From a virus (taxonomy: Duplodnaviria; Caudoviricetes), in IMG/VR virus record IMGVR_UViG_3300028888_000097, positions 1 through 64,000 of that record: a DNA stretch of 64,000 bases, one strand, 5' to 3'. The notes beneath the pieces are model-generated. The model was not told the DNA's origin, made no database searches, and saw only the letters and a program-made list of their open reading frames with translations. The position numbers and the translations under genes are program-made. How positions within the stretch are numbered: the stretch's first letter is position 1; each line of letters opens with the position of its first letter. Positions 3,441-34,514 of the stretch are shown here, piece after piece.

Positions 3441-3640
3441 AGATGAATGGCTTCAAGTTCCCGTCCAATCAGCGTCTCTGGGCGACGTACTACGACGCAA
3501 AAGGAAAGCCGAAGTGGGCGATCTGCTCCGATTCGGCGCGGATTAACTGGTATCTTTACGATCTGGAGGGGGATAAGCCTCGAAAAGTAAAGGTCGGGAA
3601 AAGCCCGAAAGATTTTGAAGAGGAGGTTGGCAAAACATGA
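3437..3640 (+). CDS. Hypothetical protein, paralogue of 6321..6530
   Basis: Shares FKFPSNQ..WATYYDAKGKP.WAICSD.ARI. Confidence 0.75.
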   Translation: MKMNGFKFPSNQRLWATYYDAKGKPKWAICSDSARINWYLYDLEGDKPRKVKVGKSPKDFEEEVGKT

Positions 3641-3969
3641 TTCCGGATAACGATTACGTCCTGCGGAGCGATGCGCTTGAAATTGCTGCGGAGTGGTGCC
3701 CGGACGATGACGGATCAGTCGGAAAAACCGGAGATCTCCGCGATATGTTGGACGAGATGGAGGCTATCCCCGCCGCAGACGTGGAGCCGGTGAGACACGG
3801 GCGGTGGGTAAAGATGGTCAGAATGATGCCTCCGGAATTTACAGGGCATTATAGTTGTAGCGAATGCGATTGGTTTTGCAAGAAACAGTCTGTTCGGGAA
3901 ACTGATTTTGATTTTTGCCCCGGCTGTGGGGCGAAGATGGACAAGGATGGACAAGGAGGAAAGCCATGA
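3637..3969 (+). CDS. Zn-ribbon accessory protein (AADVEP..H..W family)
   Basis: PAADVEPVRHGRW, CSEC..CPGC. Confidence 0.75.
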   Translation: MIPDNDYVLRSDALEIAAEWCPDDDGSVGKTGDLRDMLDEMEAIPAADVEPVRHGRWVKMVRMMPPEFTGHYSCSECDWFCKKQSVRETDFDFCPGCGAKMDKDGQGGKP

Positions 3970-4376
3970 ATGACATTGACAAGATGCCAGTGAAATGTCG
4001 GGACTGCCCATATTGGGAGTTGGCGTCATACCCGTGGTATTGCGGAGATTGCGTAGACAAGATGAATCCCAAGAACAGCGAATATATCAAGCGCATTGAT
4101 GCAAAAAGGGCGTTGACGGCATTGCCCGCTGATTTGGATGCTGAAACAGTTCAGCGGTGTGTCGAAGCGATGAACAATCCTAAAGCCGCCGATGTGGAAC
4201 CGAAGAGATATGCAGAATGGATAAGCCCGGATGGTATATCGGTTTGCTCTGAATGCGGCAAAGCGGCTCCATATGATGTTGAAGGGGATGTGATTATGTA
4301 CTGGCCCAATCTTAATTTCTGCCCGAACTGTGGATGCAGAATGAATGTGGAGGGAAAAGATGCCGAAGTACATTGA
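3966..4376 (+). CDS. Zn-ribbon accessory protein (same family)
   Basis: AADVEPKRYAEW, CSEC..CPNC; start moved to ATG overlapping upstream stop. Confidence 0.75.
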   Translation: MNDIDKMPVKCRDCPYWELASYPWYCGDCVDKMNPKNSEYIKRIDAKRALTALPADLDAETVQRCVEAMNNPKAADVEPKRYAEWISPDGISVCSECGKAAPYDVEGDVIMYWPNLNFCPNCGCRMNVEGKDAEVH

Positions 4377-4722
4377 TGCGGATGCGCTTGTAAAAGAAAC
4401 ACGCGAATGGTATTGCGCACAATGCGAGAACCGTAAGGGCATGAAGCGCGGAAAACTGCAATTTGTCTATGAAATCGGAGATGCACCGTGCCGAGCGTGT
4501 TATATTGATGACATAATTTCCGACATTGAGGATTATCCCGCAGCCGACATCGAGCCGGTGGTTCATGCAAGATGGCTCCCTACCAAGAATTTCTCGGGTA
4601 AGAAGTGTTCCAAATGTGGAGCGCGGGTCAAGAACGGGGCGGACAGAACGCATGGCTGGTGCTATAAATGCGGGGCTAAAATGGATGGAACCGCCCCGAA
4701 GGAGAACCCGGATGATAAATAA
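4360..4722 (+). CDS. Zn-ribbon accessory protein (same family)
   Basis: KYIDADAL, PAADIEPVVHARW, CSKC..CYKC. Confidence 0.75.
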   Translation: MPKYIDADALVKETREWYCAQCENRKGMKRGKLQFVYEIGDAPCRACYIDDIISDIEDYPAADIEPVVHARWLPTKNFSGKKCSKCGARVKNGADRTHGWCYKCGAKMDGTAPKENPDDK

Positions 4723-4978
4723 GCGCAAAGAACTGTTGCCGGATCACAGGGAATACGAATTGGAGCCGGGATTTAAGGTGGGAGCGCACAAACGCTCCTG
4801 CCTGTTCTGTCGGCATTGTTCGGACGTTTGGTGGGATCACATGAATGGACCGTATATGTTTTTATGCGAATTTGATGATATTCCGTGCGGGAAAGAGCAC
4901 GATCCGGAGCGGTCGTTTGTTGGAGAATGTCCGGCGTTTGAGGAAGAGGAGAGTTATCGTGAAGAACAAACTGATTGA
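4712..4978 (+). CDS. Cys-rich hypothetical protein
   Basis: CLFCRHC..C..C..C; AAGGAG RBS. Confidence 0.6.
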   Translation: MINKRKELLPDHREYELEPGFKVGAHKRSCLFCRHCSDVWWDHMNGPYMFLCEFDDIPCGKEHDPERSFVGECPAFEEEESYREEQTD

Positions 4979-5288
4979 CGCCAAAGATTTTCTGGAACGG
5001 TTAGAGGAATGTTTATATGATGTGTATAACAGAATAGACGGACCGGATGGATTCGGCTATAAAACTATTGAACGAATAGTTAGGGAAATGATGGCAGAAC
5101 AAAATCCGTGCTGGATTTCGGTGGAGGATAAATTGCCGCAATCGGGGTATGATGTTTTAGTCTGCGCCGAGGGGAATGTCTTTCCGGGCTATTATAATAC
5201 CGACACAGGTAAGTGGCGCGATGAGAACGGCAATTTAGTGAGCGGGGTTACATATTGGATGATTATTCCCGATGCGCCGGAAGAATGA
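4959..5288 (+). CDS. DUF551-like protein
   Basis: WISVEDKLPQ...VTYWMIIPDAP. Confidence 0.75.
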   Translation: MKNKLIDAKDFLERLEECLYDVYNRIDGPDGFGYKTIERIVREMMAEQNPCWISVEDKLPQSGYDVLVCAEGNVFPGYYNTDTGKWRDENGNLVSGVTYWMIIPDAPEE

Positions 5289-5292
5289 AGCG

Positions 5293-5553
5293 ATGGTGAA
5301 GATATATCAATATGTCCGTGATCCGAACTATTTCATGATTCAACTGTTTCGGGACGTGAACGATTCGCGGCCCAATATGTATCGGAGTGTCGGCGTCTAT
5401 TTGAATGTCAACGAAGTCCGTTGGGGGCAAATCGGGAGCCGGGAACTTGCGGAAGACGAAAGGTTTTACCATGAAGTGGGTGAAATCGATCTGGACGGCG
5501 TGATTCTGGACGCGATCAAGCGGGCGGTGAAAGAAAGGAATGAGAAAGAATGA
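5293..5553 (+). CDS. Hypothetical protein
   Basis: In-operon ORF with coupled stop. Confidence 0.6.
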   Translation: MVKIYQYVRDPNYFMIQLFRDVNDSRPNMYRSVGVYLNVNEVRWGQIGSRELAEDERFYHEVGEIDLDGVILDAIKRAVKERNEKE

Positions 5554-5807
5554 ATTGGAAAGAGGAAATCGCCTTCAACGAGAAGATTCTGGACGGGCTG
5601 GATCTGCCGGAGCCGGAGAACCACGAGGACCTGATTGACTATAGGGACAAAATCGAAGATATGTTCAAAGATGTGGAACTTCCGCCCGAAATGAAGGGGG
5701 ATTTGTTTGAGTTCATGGGGCTGGACGATCTGGCTGTGTATCTTCAGAAAAGGTTCGGGGTCCGGGTGGTGGAAGAAACACGGTATGTGATTGGGAGGAT
5801 GCGGTGA
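5550..5807 (+). CDS. Hypothetical protein
   Basis: ATGA overlap. Confidence 0.65.
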   Translation: MNWKEEIAFNEKILDGLDLPEPENHEDLIDYRDKIEDMFKDVELPPEMKGDLFEFMGLDDLAVYLQKRFGVRVVEETRYVIGRMR

Positions 5808-10248: not shown

Positions 10249-10610
10249 TGGAAAAATATCAATTATACATAGGTGCGCTTCAGGATATTCCGGCGGGGAT
10301 TGAATTTTCCTATTACGACAGCCGGAGGCGGTATCTTTTCCTCCTGTCCGACCACAAGCCGGAGGGGAAGTTCAAAGTGGTTCCGGAGACGATGTACGGG
10401 GAACTGGATCCGGGTGAGCGGGCGTGGTTCAACAACGCCTGTATGGTGCTGAACTCCCGGTGGGTACGCGCCCACGAGGAAGAAGCGGCGGAAGCGGCGA
10501 ACGGTTTTCTCGCGCTGTTTGAGAAGGAATTGAAAAAGGAAGCGGAAAGGGCGGCTGAAGATGGAAGAAACCAAGGCTCCGGCGAAGGGGCTGATCCGGG
10601 CGGCGGTTGA
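10248..10610 (+). CDS. Hypothetical protein
   Basis: TGATG coupling to terL (start inside track ORF 9957..10610). Confidence 0.6.
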   Translation: MEKYQLYIGALQDIPAGIEFSYYDSRRRYLFLLSDHKPEGKFKVVPETMYGELDPGERAWFNNACMVLNSRWVRAHEEEAAEAANGFLALFEKELKKEAERAAEDGRNQGSGEGADPGGG

Positions 10611-12324
10611 GAAATTCAATGCGCTGTCCGACCAATACAGCGGCATTCTGTCCGCACAGGCATTTGCGTCGGCGTTTTCCCGGGCCAACTACGGCATGGC
10701 GAATCAGCCGTCGGTACAGAACGCGAGAATCAAGGGAATTTCCTCCCTGCCGGTGGACTACACAAAGGATCAAATCGGAGAATATCTCAGATACCCCTAC
10801 TCCCACGAGCAGGAGTTAAGAGAGACGGCGGAGATTCTTCGGTGGACCAACTATCCGTTCTTCAAAATCAACAAAACGGAGCAGGACATCCCGACGGACC
10901 GGTACTACTTCAAGCCCTTGTATCTGACAGGGGAAGAGGGAAAGATGGAACGGTTCCAAAGGGAAGCGGTTCTGCTTGACCGACTGAACAAGGAGATCAA
11001 ACCGGAGGCTACACTTCACCGGATTCGCGGCGAGGCTCTGCTTCAGGGCAAGGCGATTTACACGACGCGGATTCAGGCGGACAAGGCGCACAACAAGTTC
11101 AACTACGCCTTTCTGGAACAGCTTCCGACGGACTGGTGTACGATCATCGGACGGAACAACATTTCCGGATGGACGGTATCGTTCAATATGATGTACTTCC
11201 TCCGTCCTGGCGCGACGGTGGAACAGTACGGGGACCTCTTCCTGCCCTACATGGACGCTTTTGAGCGGATGTTTACGGAGAAGGAGGAGCAGACCAGGCA
11301 ATTCGTTTACGCCTCCCACAACAACGCTGTGAGCGTTCAAAAGGGGAACCGGAAGATTGCCTTTTATCCCGAGAATGTGGACGCGGAATCCGTCGGAAAT
11401 CCCCGCGTATTCCAGCAGAACGGGACATGGTGCTATTACGTCTCCCTTCCCATCGACCGGGTATGGGTGTTTGAAATCGACGACACGACGCCCGCGATCA
11501 TTCCTCCTCTGGCGGGGATGTTCCTGACCTACGCGCAGCAGTCCGATTTCGAGGAGATCCAGAAGACCTTATACACCAATCCGCTTGTGAAAATCTTCAC
11601 GGGCGAGATCCCCTACTTCAACGATGAGGGGACGCGGGTGGAGGATACCTACAAGCTCTCCGAAGGCGGACGGATGCTGTTCCAATTCCTTTTTGAGGAG
11701 ATGATGAACCGCAACAACACGGCGGGGACAGCGTTCTTCATGGCCCCCGTGGAAAACATCAAGAGCCACGACTATCAGGAATCCGCCAACGCGAACGACA
11801 TTTCCACGACGTTCAATCAGTACGCGGGGTCCAAGGTGGGGCTTGCGGCTCTGATTCCAGTGGACAAGGACATCAAGGCGGCACAGGTTGAAGCGGCGAT
11901 GAAGATTGAAAGCCGGTACGCGACGGCTTGCATTTACCCGCAGTTCGAGCGGATGATGAACTGGATTTACAAGTCCCTTCATCTCCAATACGAATGGGAG
12001 TTCAAGATTTTCGGAACGATCTTCACCGAAGAGAAGATCCGGAAGGACGCGGAGGCGGAATTTGCGCGGGGCGATATGTCCGCGCTGTTCGTCATTGCGG
12101 CTCTTGACGGTCTGAGCTGGCTCGACAAGATTTCCATGCTCCGGGCGATGGACTCTTCCGGGATTATGGATCTGTTCCGGGTTCCCGAGACGGCGTACAC
12201 GCAAAGCGGGAAAGTTTCGGGTTCCTCCGGTCAGCCGGGGCGACCGAGGACGGAGGGAATCTCCTCCGAATCGAAGGAAAAAGCGATTGACATGGGCGTT
12301 TCGGAGTCGGATTTAAGCGAATGA
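10561..12324 (+). CDS. Portal protein
   Basis: 587 aa after terL; C-terminal GRPRTEG pattern; synteny. Confidence 0.75.
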   Translation: MEETKAPAKGLIRAAVEKFNALSDQYSGILSAQAFASAFSRANYGMANQPSVQNARIKGISSLPVDYTKDQIGEYLRYPYSHEQELRETAEILRWTNYPFFKINKTEQDIPTDRYYFKPLYLTGEEGKMERFQREAVLLDRLNKEIKPEATLHRIRGEALLQGKAIYTTRIQADKAHNKFNYAFLEQLPTDWCTIIGRNNISGWTVSFNMMYFLRPGATVEQYGDLFLPYMDAFERMFTEKEEQTRQFVYASHNNAVSVQKGNRKIAFYPENVDAESVGNPRVFQQNGTWCYYVSLPIDRVWVFEIDDTTPAIIPPLAGMFLTYAQQSDFEEIQKTLYTNPLVKIFTGEIPYFNDEGTRVEDTYKLSEGGRMLFQFLFEEMMNRNNTAGTAFFMAPVENIKSHDYQESANANDISTTFNQYAGSKVGLAALIPVDKDIKAAQVEAAMKIESRYATACIYPQFERMMNWIYKSLHLQYEWEFKIFGTIFTEEKIRKDAEAEFARGDMSALFVIAALDGLSWLDKISMLRAMDSSGIMDLFRVPETAYTQSGKVSGSSGQPGRPRTEGISSESKEKAIDMGVSESDLSE

Positions 12325-13070: not shown

Positions 13071-13141
13071 TCCGGGATAGTGTAGGGGTTACACAGTGGG
13101 TTTTGGCCCCACTCACGTCGGTTCGATCCCGGCTCCCGGCG
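13071..13141 (+). tRNA. tRNA-Gln(TTG)
   Basis: Cloverleaf; anticodon arm GTGGG-TTTTGGC-CCCAC; T-loop TTCGATC. Confidence 0.85.
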
Positions 13142-13165
13142 TAAAACTGAAATATGCCGTATAAA

Positions 13166-13218
13166 CGGGCGGTGCATAGGTGCTTTCGGTGGATGGGTTC
13201 AATTCCCATACTGTCCGC
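13166..13218 (+). ncRNA. tRNA-like element with acceptor stem and T-arm but no anticodon arm
   Basis: GGGCGGT/ACTGTCC stem, ATGGG-TTCAATT-CCCAT T-arm, only 19 nt between them. Confidence 0.45.
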
Positions 13219-13251
13219 AAAAATAACATATTCCGGTAAACCGATTTATAC

Positions 13252-13322
13252 AGGGGCGTAGTTTAACGGTAGAACGGCGGTCTCCAAAACCGATAATGGG
13301 AGTTCGATTCTCTCCGGTCCTG
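13252..13322 (+). tRNA. tRNA-Trp(CCA)
   Basis: AGGGGCGTAGTTTAACGGTAGAAC..CTCCAAA..GTTCGATTC. Confidence 0.88.
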
Positions 13323-13327
13323 TATTA

Positions 13328-13412
13328 TGGTTGGGTCTCCCTCAAGTCCGATACCACTCCGCACACGCCTCTGCTTGATTGAAATGCGTACCTGTGCGGG
13401 AAAGTCGGGCAA
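13328..13412 (+). ncRNA. Unrecognised structured RNA motif, copy 1
   Basis: TGGTTGGG..CCCTCA.GTCCGATACCA..GCCTCT..AAAGTCGG.CAA shared with 13662..13744. Confidence 0.6.
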
Positions 13413-13415
13413 TCC

Positions 13416-13487
13416 GGCAGAGTGGAGCAGTGGCAGCTCGTCAGGCCCATAACCTGAAGGTCGAAGGTTCAAATCCTTCCTCTGCAA
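13416..13487 (+). tRNA. tRNA-Met(CAT), initiator-like (1:72 mismatch) with C33
   Basis: Cloverleaf; TCAGG-CCCATAA-CCTGA; GGTTCAAATCC. Confidence 0.85.
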
Positions 13488-13565
13488 TTTGGCGGACGCG
13501 CCGAACGGCTTCCTGTGCCGGATTCCGGCGGAGACATTGTGTCTCTGAGGGATCAAACAGGATAT

Positions 13566-13638
13566 GGAAGCATAGCTCAACAGGCAGAGCATCGGTCTGT
13601 TAAACCGAGGGTTTTAGGTTCGATTCCTAATGTTTCCG
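13566..13638 (+). tRNA. tRNA-Asn(GTT)
   Basis: TCGGT-CTGTTAA-ACCGA; GGTTCGATTCC. Confidence 0.9.
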
Positions 13639-13661
13639 GGGTCCCGTTTGCGCGCGCGGGT

Positions 13662-13744
13662 TGGTTGGGTTCGCAGCCCTCACGTCCGATACCAAAAAGC
13701 ATATGGCCTCTCATGGAAGCACACTATATGAAAAAGTCGGACAA
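13662..13744 (+). ncRNA. Unrecognised structured RNA motif, copy 2
   Basis: Same conserved blocks; variable stem has different sequence but still pairs. Confidence 0.6.
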
Positions 13745-13746
13745 AT

Positions 13747-13819
13747 GCTCTTGTAGCTCAATTGGTAGAGTACGGCTTTCGTAAAGCTGGGGTTCCGGGA
13801 TCGTGACCCGGCAAGAGCT
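13747..13819 (+). tRNA. tRNA-Thr(CGT) with atypical T-loop
   Basis: GCTCTTG/CAAGAGC; CGGCT-TTCGTAA-AGCTG; T-loop ATCGTGA. Confidence 0.8.
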
Positions 13820-13823
13820 TCCT

Positions 13824-13894
13824 GCTCCTGTATGTCAACAGTAGACGACCGCTCCTGTAAAGCGGGGATAATGGTGCAAATCCATTCTGGAGCT
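13824..13894 (+). tRNA. tRNA-Thr(TGT), atypical or degenerate
   Basis: CCGCT-CCTGTAA-AGCGG (C33); T-loop TGCAAAT; one T-T mismatch in acceptor stem. Confidence 0.65.
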
Positions 13895-13936: not shown

Positions 13937-13978
13937 AAGAGGGGCTGGATCTGCAAAAGCGGATTCGGCCCCTTTTTC
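13937..13978 (+). terminator. Intrinsic terminator ending the tRNA cluster
   Basis: AAGAGGGGC...GCCCCTTTTT hairpin and T-tract. Confidence 0.65.
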
Positions 13979-33920: not shown

Positions 33921-34514
33921 ATGGGACTGTTCAAGGTAACGGTTTCGGGGTTTGAAACGGTTGAGAATGACCTTGAAAAAGAGCAGAAGCAGATTGAGAA
34001 AGCATCTGTCGAAGGGCTGCGCGTGGTGGAGAGCCAGTTTTACGCGGATCTGGAACGGCACATTCAAAAGGACTGGTACGAGGCATGGGGTGAACCGAAG
34101 CAATACGAACGGAGAACGGACGACCCTTCTCTCGGCCCTCCGCTGGGCGATTTCAGCAACATGCACTCTGAGATCAAGGGGCTGACCCTTACGTTTGATT
34201 ATTTCCCGTCCGGGAAGCACAGCAACGGGGAATGGAACAACCACAACGGGGACGAGATCATCAAGATCGTTCAAATGAACGAAGGATGGAGTTATCCGGT
34301 GAACGAGGACCAGCGAAAACGCATGATTATGCCCCGTCCGTTCTGGAACAATTTCGTGGAGGAAGAATTTAACGGACAGGCATTCGCCGTATTTGACTAC
34401 GGCTTTTCCGGACGCGGGTACGACCTGATTTCGGAGGGCGTCGGAAAAGACCTTGAATACACGGGCGGAGAAAGTCTACTCGAAGCCGCAGAAGATTACG
34501 ATTTACCGCTATGA
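33921..34514 (+). CDS. Tail completion protein (HK97 gp10-like)
   Basis: GFETVENDLEK.. and C-terminal PRPFW motif. Confidence 0.55.
   Translation: MGLFKVTVSGFETVENDLEKEQKQIEKASVEGLRVVESQFYADLERHIQKDWYEAWGEPKQYERRTDDPSLGPPLGDFSNMHSEIKGLTLTFDYFPSGKHSNGEWNNHNGDEIIKIVQMNEGWSYPVNEDQRKRMIMPRPFWNNFVEEEFNGQAFAVFDYGFSGRGYDLISEGVGKDLEYTGGESLLEAAEDYDLPL

Follow-up and report, generated by a model that had tools for sequence, protein, structure and literature searches.

Paired structured RNAs in a phage tRNA operon contain a candidate divergent abiF-type antitoxin hairpin without an Abi_2 gene

AbiF (Abi_2), a bacterial suicide nuclease of abortive infection, has only recently been shown to be an RNA-antitoxin system and the ancestor of Cas13. 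To our knowledge, very few examples of counter-defence by RNA have been documented, among them pseudo-ToxI and the RNA anti-CRISPRs. Non-tRNA RNAs that are linked to tRNAs and released by tRNA processing include the species 1 and 2 RNAs of T4 and the tRNA-miRNA units of MHV68, and circularly permuted tRNA genes and two-piece tmRNA genes are of the same kind. [quoted passage not shown] In the solved AbiF-ncRNA complex, single-stranded bulge nucleotides block the HEPN RNase, and AbiF has been described as the Cas13 ancestor (review PMC12737573). The Pectobacterium phage PhiTE escapes ToxIN, a type III toxin-antitoxin and abortive infection system, by means of pseudo-ToxI, an RNA mimic of the antitoxin (PMC3475682).

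The locus described here lies in the first 64 kb (the window) of a 90,681-bp IMG/VR virus record, from a gut/rumen phage, that encodes two tyrosine integrases. A tRNA operon is located just 3' of the portal module (portal gene at 10561-12324), and no promoter-like sites were seen within its tRNA array. A first-pass annotation had reported two paralogous RNA elements here, and both, each ~83 nt long, are present inside the six-tRNA operon at the coordinates and on the strand claimed (EL1 and EL2; Table 1). The spacer SP is separate from EL; it starts with UUUGGCGGACGCG, recurs at L039:5516-5597 on the contig that holds EL5, and forms a hairpin with a compensatory change (GAGAC-AUUGU-GUCUC in the window vs CAGAC-AUUGC-GUCUG in L039) followed by UGAGGGA. 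SP had no match in Rfam and is missing from L038, the contig that holds EL4, where tRNA-Met and tRNA-Asn are 2 nt apart. The 108-nt gap between tRNA-Gln and tRNA-Trp (13142-13250) contains T-arm-like and acceptor-like segments (GGUGGAUGGGUUCAAUUCCCAUACUGUCCGCA) and is probably a decayed tRNA; a faint match to the Rfam tmRNA 3' end was found at 13193-13209. Between tRNA-Asn and EL2, a GC-rich hairpin (CCCG UUUGCGCGCG CGGG, 13643-13660) occupies most of the 22 nt; it is not present before the other EL copies. The segment 13908-13976 (GGCGGGGAGGGAAGCCAAGAGGGGCUGG...), which lies 3' of the last tRNA and overlaps the terminator, is kept in L038 and L039 and gave a faint match to Rfam gut-2 (18.8 bits). 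The tRNA-Met(CAU) copies 3' of EL in the window, L038 (616-688) and L039 (5442-5515) have a 1:72 mismatch (G.A or A.A) and are without the three G-C pairs of the initiator anticodon stem. A tRNA of 83-84 nt at L030:3359-3441 and L038:854-937 combines the anticodon UUG (Gln) with a long variable arm, which is unusual for bacteria. Elsewhere in the window, a 911-aa ORF (7-2742) has an N6/N4 DNA methylase domain and a Hint (intein) domain and is probably an intein-containing methyltransferase.

Table 1. Features of the tRNA operon, the two EL copies of the window and the copies in related phages. Positions refer to the window unless a contig is named.
Feature	Position	Strand	Description	Basis
tRNA operon	13071-13894	+	six tRNAs, EL1, SP, EL2	ARAGORN, Rfam tRNA model
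tRNA-Gln	13071-13141	+		
tRNA-Trp	13251-13323	+		
EL1, whole element	13328-13410	+		direct reading, alignment
EL1 helix a	13328-13331 with 13353-13356	+	UGGU with ACCA	
EL1 hairpin b	13333-13335 with 13339-13341	+	GGG with CCC	
EL1 helix c	13346-13352 with 13404-13410	+	GUCCGAU with GUCGGGC	
EL1 abiF-type hairpin	13358-13400	+		Rfam abiF, R2, R3, core pattern
EL1 outer stem	13358-13364 with 13394-13400	+	UCCGCAC with GUGCGGG	
EL1 A and inner stem	13365; 13366-13368 with 13386-13388	+	A; CGC with GCG	
EL1 loop	13369-13385	+	begins CUCU	
EL1 3' bulge	13389-13393	+	UACCU	
tRNA-Met	13416-13487	+		
SP	13488-13564	+	second conserved non-tRNA spacer, between tRNA-Met and tRNA-Asn	
tRNA-Asn	13565-13639	+		
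EL2, whole element	13662-13742	+		direct reading, alignment
EL2 helix a	13662-13665 with 13691-13694	+		
EL2 hairpin b	13667-13669 with 13677-13679	+	GGG with CCC, T-loop-like loop UUCGCAG	
EL2 helix c	13684-13690 with 13736-13742	+		
EL2 degenerate abiF-type hairpin	13700-13730	+		fold, direct reading
EL2 outer stem		+	CAUAUG with UAUAUG	
EL2 inner stem	13706-13707 with 13719-13720	+	GC with GC	
EL2 loop		+	CUCUCAUGGAA	
EL2 bulge	13721-13724	+	ACAC	
tRNA-Thr	13747-13819	+		
Sixth tRNA	13824-13894	+		Rfam only
Intrinsic terminator	13937-13976	+	strong; closes the tRNA/EL operon after the last tRNA; 18-bp stem, then U-run	
EL3	L030:3445-3528		contig portal 98% identical	metagenome scan with portal alignment
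EL4	L038:694-776	-	buffalo-cecum Clostridia MAG contig	pattern scan of GTDB genomes
EL5	L039:5349-5436		Eubacteriales MAG contig	pattern scan of GTDB genomes

EL1 and EL2 have the common layout UGGU-U-GGG-(loop)-CCC-UC-NN-GUCCGAU-ACCA, followed by a variable stem around GCCUCU, an A-run and GUCGGRC. Direct reading confirmed the shared blocks listed in the first-pass annotation (UGGUUGGGU, CCCUC-NN-GUCCGAUACCA, GCCUCU and AAAGUCGGRC), and the pairings proposed there exist in both copies. These are UGGU/ACCA (helix a), GGG/CCC (hairpin b, with a loop of 3 nt in one paralogue vs 7 nt in the other), GUCCGAU/GUCGGRC (helix c, 7 bp with a G.U pair at its end) and a long stem whose sequence is unrelated between the paralogues (domain d). 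Helices a and c are built on one uninterrupted invariant strand, GUCCGAUACCA, and together constitute an H-type pseudoknot, whose loop 1 contains hairpin b and whose loop 3 contains domain d. The G.U pairs assign the RNA to the plus strand. Model R1 gave 114.6 bits for EL1 (by construction) and 32.1 bits for EL2 (E 5.5e-6). The phage genome holds these two EL copies only; a third 14-nt match, at 87033 of the phage's own genome, is coding and was rejected as an EL. Single-sequence folding energies were no better than those of shuffles (z -0.87 and +0.50). The elements had been said to end 2-3 nt before a tRNA, a figure that counted a trailing AA into the element; the last helix strand is actually 5 nt from tRNA-Met in EL1 and 4 nt from tRNA-Thr in EL2.

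Searches of Rfam, at gathering thresholds and at E<=10, returned no family at threshold apart from tRNAs. The sole recurring weak non-tRNA match was abiF, which scored 16.7 bits on EL1 (13359-13400) against a gathering threshold of 37 and had its best match in the whole phage there; EL2, EL4 and EL5 had no match to Rfam abiF at E<=10. Among 151 genomes from the class of the EL4 MAG (Clostridia), 14 yielded genuine abiF motifs, each followed 20-40 nt further on by an Abi_2 gene (Pfam E 1e-48 to 1e-55). The motifs take the form CCCGAC-A-CGC-CUCU-yAACr-AU-GCG-K-ACC-AN-GUCGGG, and EL1 that of UCCGCAC-A-CGC-CUCU-(13 nt)-AU-GCG-U-ACC-U-GUGCGGG. The core ACGCCUCU...AUGCG(U/A)ACC within a covarying outer stem is thus common to EL and to the Clostridia motifs upstream of Abi_2. 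The outer stem of one genuine motif (L105) is CCGCAC/GUGCGG, as in EL1, and genuine outer stems vary in the same way as the five different outer stems of EL.

Two models were built from genuine abiF motifs only, R2 and R3, the latter from 63 diverse motifs. EL1 ranked top in 84 kb with both (R2, 19.5 bits, E 0.012; R3, 21.3 bits, E 0.0016), EL3 and EL4 gave local core matches only (10-11 bits), and EL2 and EL5 did not match these home-built models. The core A-CGC-CUCU...AU-GCG of EL1 and EL3, with its 3-bp inner stem, is the consensus of the 63 genuine motifs; in EL4 the bulged A is replaced by G, EL5 is without the U of AU, and EL2 retains just GC-CUCU..GC. The pattern CGCCTCT-N5-15-GCG-N1-2-ACC occurred, among 66 loci, in four of the five ELs and otherwise at abiF loci only. 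ACC is found in the 3' bulge of four of the five copies (ACAC in EL2), and this bulge, the putative counterpart of the one that bears the inhibitory nucleotides in abiF RNA, has 5 nt vs the canonical 6 (N-ACC-A-N). The low scores of the abiF models on EL result from a loop about 6 nt longer and a bulge 1 nt shorter than canonical. On the strength of its core and pairing, domain d is best read as a variant of abiF RNA or a divergent member of that family, with a score below the Rfam threshold. Equating the long stem around GCCUCU with the antitoxin motif of a known family removes part of the novelty claimed for the element and redirects its likely function towards phage counter-defence.

The first-pass annotation had proposed a new tRNA-associated ncRNA or ribozyme. 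EL is indeed a conserved, structured non-coding RNA that is co-oriented with the tRNA operon, but nothing indicates self-cleavage or tRNA processing. That EL is a self-cleaving ribozyme of a new kind, or an HDV-like fold in permuted form, and cuts the polycistronic tRNA transcript is in our view very improbable. Such a ribozyme could cut between the A-run and the G of GUCGGRC, with the invariant G.U at the pseudoknot junction. It would account for the many invariant unpaired nucleotides, it would liken the 7-bp helix with its terminal invariant G.U, the 3-bp GC hairpin and the variable peripheral stem to HDV-like P1, P3 and P4, and it has a precedent in theta ribozymes, which adjoin phage tRNAs (PMC10879173). 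However, the helix order is a-b-b'-c-a'-d-d'-c' rather than the P1-P2-P3-P3'-P1'-P4-P2' of HDV-like and theta ribozymes, the J4/2 position of the catalytic C is occupied by AAA to AAAAA in all five copies, the loop of hairpin b is unconserved (3-7 nt among copies), the distance to the upstream tRNA ranges from 3 to 22 nt, and the variable stem is accounted for by the abiF motif. The statement that EL does not match HDV/theta, hammerhead, twister or pistol proved right, as Rfam ribozyme models returned nothing even at E<=10 with 1-kb and 92-nt sequences; twister-sister and hairpin ribozyme models likewise had no match at E<=10. The core of a standard or permuted HDV ribozyme is missing, the hammerhead core CUGANGA is absent and non-circular permutations of it (PMC10085705) were also ruled out, and neither the topology nor the core of hatchet (topology compared from PMC6561176), pistol or twister fits. 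Several other identities were rejected: CsrA or CRISPR-repeat mimicry, since the loop motifs are not conserved in every copy; antisense action of the CCUCU loop on phage mRNAs, since CAGAGGC is not enriched; attP, since the integrase genes are >35 kb distant; and small-ORF explanations.

The EL alignment comprises five copies from four related phages. EL1, EL4 and EL5 lie between tRNA-Trp and tRNA-Met, EL2 between tRNA-Asn (22 nt away) and tRNA-Thr, and EL3 between a long-arm tRNA and a GIY-YIG homing endonuclease gene. The elements are therefore tRNA-flanked, but the earlier description of them as directly 5' of tRNAs does not hold strictly, as the L030 copy is without a downstream tRNA and the upstream tRNA lies at a variable distance (3, 3, 4, 8 or 22 nt). 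The distance from the last helix to tRNA +1 is 4-5 nt in four of the five copies. In the 98%-identical relative L030, the GIY-YIG gene splits the tRNA array right after EL3 and a TnpB (IS605 OrfB) gene follows tRNA-Thr (mobile genes at 3634-4362 and 4574-5701); the array is a hotspot for mobile genes. Some 40 nt 3' of EL3, a short hairpin (CCCAAC-A-CUG-CCAU-GUUGAG, L030:3568-3590) resembles an abiF outer stem and bulge minus the CGC-CUCU core and scored ~10 bits with both abiF models. Three IMG/VR pattern scans with the 5' blocks of EL returned chance matches in coding sequence only, and when the region was compared by blastn with 50,697 phage records, only tRNAs matched. Portal relatives in IMG/VR (~55% identity) lacked tRNAs near the portal gene and were without an EL anywhere in their records, nearer portal relatives (75-82%) were present in Logan/ENA assemblies only, and a single-protein search with the neighbouring 476-aa gene product found nothing.

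Some 40 positions are invariant across all five copies, and ~33 nt of the 5' scaffold are better conserved than the neighbouring tRNAs; the tRNAs flanking EL differ by 7-24% between the same phages. Standard pairs make up 95.7% of the pair cells of the five-copy alignment, and sliding the 3' partners as a control brought pairing down to 32-44%. The stem sequence of the domain d outer stem is different in every copy, with five of seven pairs changed on both sides, and the observed covariation score was reached by none of 500 shuffles. The covariation claimed earlier is thus borne out for this stem, but helices a, b and c are invariant (c has a one-sided change, G.U vs A-U, at one pair), and for them pairing is consistent while covariation offers no proof. 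The same data bear on a further reading, in which EL is what is left of decaying tRNA genes and of a former abiF leader and does nothing at present. In its favour, EL2 does align in its 5' part to a tRNA 3' half, other tRNA-like debris lies in the array at 13142-13250, and a relative carries mobile genes; nevertheless, invariance of this order next to diverging tRNAs, an outer stem kept paired by compensatory changes and the retention of two paralogues in one genome make decay hardly credible.

A six-frame search of the 90.7-kb phage record in full gave no Abi_2 match at E<=1, and the MAGs holding EL4 and EL5 contained neither Abi_2 nor an abiF motif. The phage carries an antitoxin RNA motif without its cognate toxin, as in the pseudo-ToxI type. 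An IMG/VR scan with the pattern CACGCCTCT-N5-15-ATGCGNACC matched >118 stretches, and 80 loci (L067-L146) were among the matches listed. Nearly all of these 80 are proper abiF hairpins with covarying outer stems. An Abi_2 gene was directly downstream in 8 of the 80 by a narrow home-made HMM that divergent toxins may escape, and 6 of the 80 were too near a contig end to judge the downstream gene. Genes 3' of the listed motifs, checked with Pfam, encode a lipase, an integrase, a large terminase, a phosphoesterase and unknowns, and some listed orphan motifs adjoin integrase genes. Many listed orphan motifs keep an AACAGAA 5' flank and a UC(A/U)UUU 3' flank without an Abi_2 gene. By blastn, the core was found in 99 cultured phage records, mostly intergenic, whose carriers include Bacillus Nitunavirus, Staphylococcus Herelleviridae, Enterococcus and Streptococcus phages. 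Bacillus phage phiNIT1 (AP013029.1 ~34367-34404) has a 41-bit motif 550 nt after tRNA-Asn and no Abi_2 in its complete genome. Orphan abiF hairpins are common in viral contigs and cultured phages.

It is unlikely, in our assessment, that EL is an antitoxin or regulator of a divergent toxin encoded by the phage itself, or that it protects a lysogen against incoming AbiF-carrying elements (anti-addiction). The two tyrosine integrases, which suggest that the phage may be temperate, the AbiF systems of prophages (PMC12373285) and the orphan motifs beside integrase genes would fit such a role. The six-frame search of the whole record argues against it, as do the position of the motif in a tRNA operon of the late/structural region with no candidate toxin gene adjoining and the phiNIT1 copy, which is likewise an orphan.

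Linkage to tRNAs extends to many other phages. A same-strand tRNA lies 12-18 nt from the core, on either side, in 18 of the 80 listed loci, and one more has a tRNA gap of 36 nt. The chance expectation for such adjacency is 0.2% (binomial P ~1e-28 for the 80 listed loci, uncorrected for relatedness). The tRNA-abutting motifs represent at least nine unrelated stem lineages, some within arrays of 15-22 tRNAs, and in other phages several abiF hairpins linked to tRNAs precede terminator-like U-runs. The a/b/c scaffold of EL was absent from all 80. Orphan abiF RNAs linked to tRNAs seem to be unreported in the searchable literature, a body that excludes the primary AbiF structure paper. A further reading takes EL as a cis-acting structural spacer, such as a processing guide, exonuclease barrier, attenuator or terminator, which would shape how the flanking tRNAs mature and in what stoichiometry and would resemble abiF through a shared hairpin design rather than through AbiF binding. 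The U-runs, the constant 4-5 nt between last helix and tRNA +1 in four of five copies and the possibility that the 7-bp acceptor-like helix with ACCA recruits RNase P speak for a spacer, but 17 sequence-specific core nucleotides identical to the antitoxin motif would be superfluous in a spacer or terminator, EL3 is kept without a downstream tRNA, and related phages do with 2-nt tRNA spacers (Met-Asn in L038). We consider a spacer role rather improbable.

The 5' part of EL resembles the 3' half of a tRNA in degenerate form, with a T-arm-like hairpin, a 7-nt acceptor-like strand and A followed by CCA. GUCCGAU-A-CCA resembles an acceptor 3' strand with discriminator base and CCA, and GUCGGRC restores a 7-bp acceptor-like helix. 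In EL2, the loop of hairpin b is of UUCG type and 7 nt long. The 5' part of this copy can be aligned with a tRNA-Asn 3' half, CCA and an A-rich spacer from a tRNA-abiF unit in L084 (score 35, z 8.7, 0/500 shuffles), and other EL copies align more weakly. With low confidence, we suggest that EL may derive from a tRNA-abiF-tRNA arrangement whose tRNAs decayed and left a permuted acceptor-like clamp. ARAGORN and Rfam RF00005 detected no cloverleaf tRNA in EL. Mimicry of a host tRNA 3' end was rejected, as no host tRNA with this 3' end was found in the two MAGs and GUCCGAUACCA occurs there at chance rate and not at tRNAs. The pseudoknot scaffold probably gives stability and defined processing.

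As the phage is without AbiF, EL is most likely an antitoxin mimic, and decoys against AbiF defence are the most likely reading when set against a new ribozyme. By analogy with pseudo-ToxI of PhiTE, we give an even chance to the specific proposal that EL is a phage mimic of the antitoxin, directed against AbiF and released from the tRNA transcript. EL would be transcribed as part of the phage tRNA operon. Its 3' side would probably be freed by RNase P, which acts at the 5' end of the downstream tRNA, and its 5' side by RNase Z or other nucleases that cut behind the upstream tRNA. We infer that the central abiF-type hairpin, clamped by the lineage-specific H-type pseudoknot, would then bind host AbiF (Abi_2/AbiD-F, a HEPN RNase) and hold the toxin inactive. 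Abundant EL in infection would replace the host's decaying antitoxin as host transcription fades, AbiF would be kept neutral, and the infected cell would not be killed. Such a decoy role leaves the stronger conservation of the ~33-nt 5' scaffold relative to the neighbouring tRNAs unexplained. A broader proposal is tentative, and we would give it somewhat less than an even chance: Firmicutes phages may routinely hide orphan AbiF-antitoxin RNAs in tRNA operons, from which host RNase P and RNase Z would release abundant, stable AbiF decoys. In the present lineage the decoy would be fused to a degenerate, circularly permuted tRNA acceptor/T-arm scaffold and form a composite RNA of a new class; its invariant 5' domain may act on a further target, such as an enzyme or toxin directed at tRNA acceptors.

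Should the orphan abiF RNAs beside tRNAs prove to be decoys, they would represent a widespread phage answer to AbiF, and phage tRNA clusters would take on a further role, that of platforms on which anti-defence RNAs are expressed and processed. The decoy reading would also account for many unannotated intergenic hairpins of cultured Bacillus, Staphylococcus and Enterococcus phages, and compact natural inhibitors of an AbiF/Cas13-type nuclease would be on hand. In the composite EL, a tRNA remnant would have been recycled into an RNA scaffold.

Among known systems, EL shares with abiF RNA (RF03085; RCd22, AbiFr) a covarying outer stem of 5-7 bp, a bulged A, a CGC/GCG inner stem, a loop running from CUCU to AU and, in four of the five copies, ACC in a 3' bulge. 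It differs in scoring below the Rfam threshold, in its longer loop and shorter bulge (by ~6 nt and 1 nt), in its position away from Abi_2 and without the usual AACAGAA and UCAUUU flanks, and in its setting between tRNAs, inside an additional pseudoknot and 7-bp helix. Like theta (minimal HDV-like) ribozymes, EL is a small structured RNA directly beside phage tRNA genes of the same strand; unlike them, it has no HDV helix order, catalytic C or Rfam HDV match, and protein binding rather than cleavage is predicted. In common with tRNA-linked RNAs, it is a non-tRNA RNA within a tRNA transcription unit and has an acceptor-stem-like helix with ACCA, its strands permuted, whereas it forms no cloverleaf, has no tag reading frame and carries an antitoxin-type hairpin as its payload. 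With pseudo-ToxI, EL has in common that a phage encodes a version, putative in the case of EL, of an antitoxin RNA of the host but not the toxin, and the predicted mode of action, in which the toxin is kept neutralised, is the same. The predicted target is a HEPN AbiF protein and not ToxN, the RNA fold is different, expression is from a tRNA operon, and the motif occurs once in each of two elements of the phage, whereas pseudo-ToxI is a tandem repeat array.
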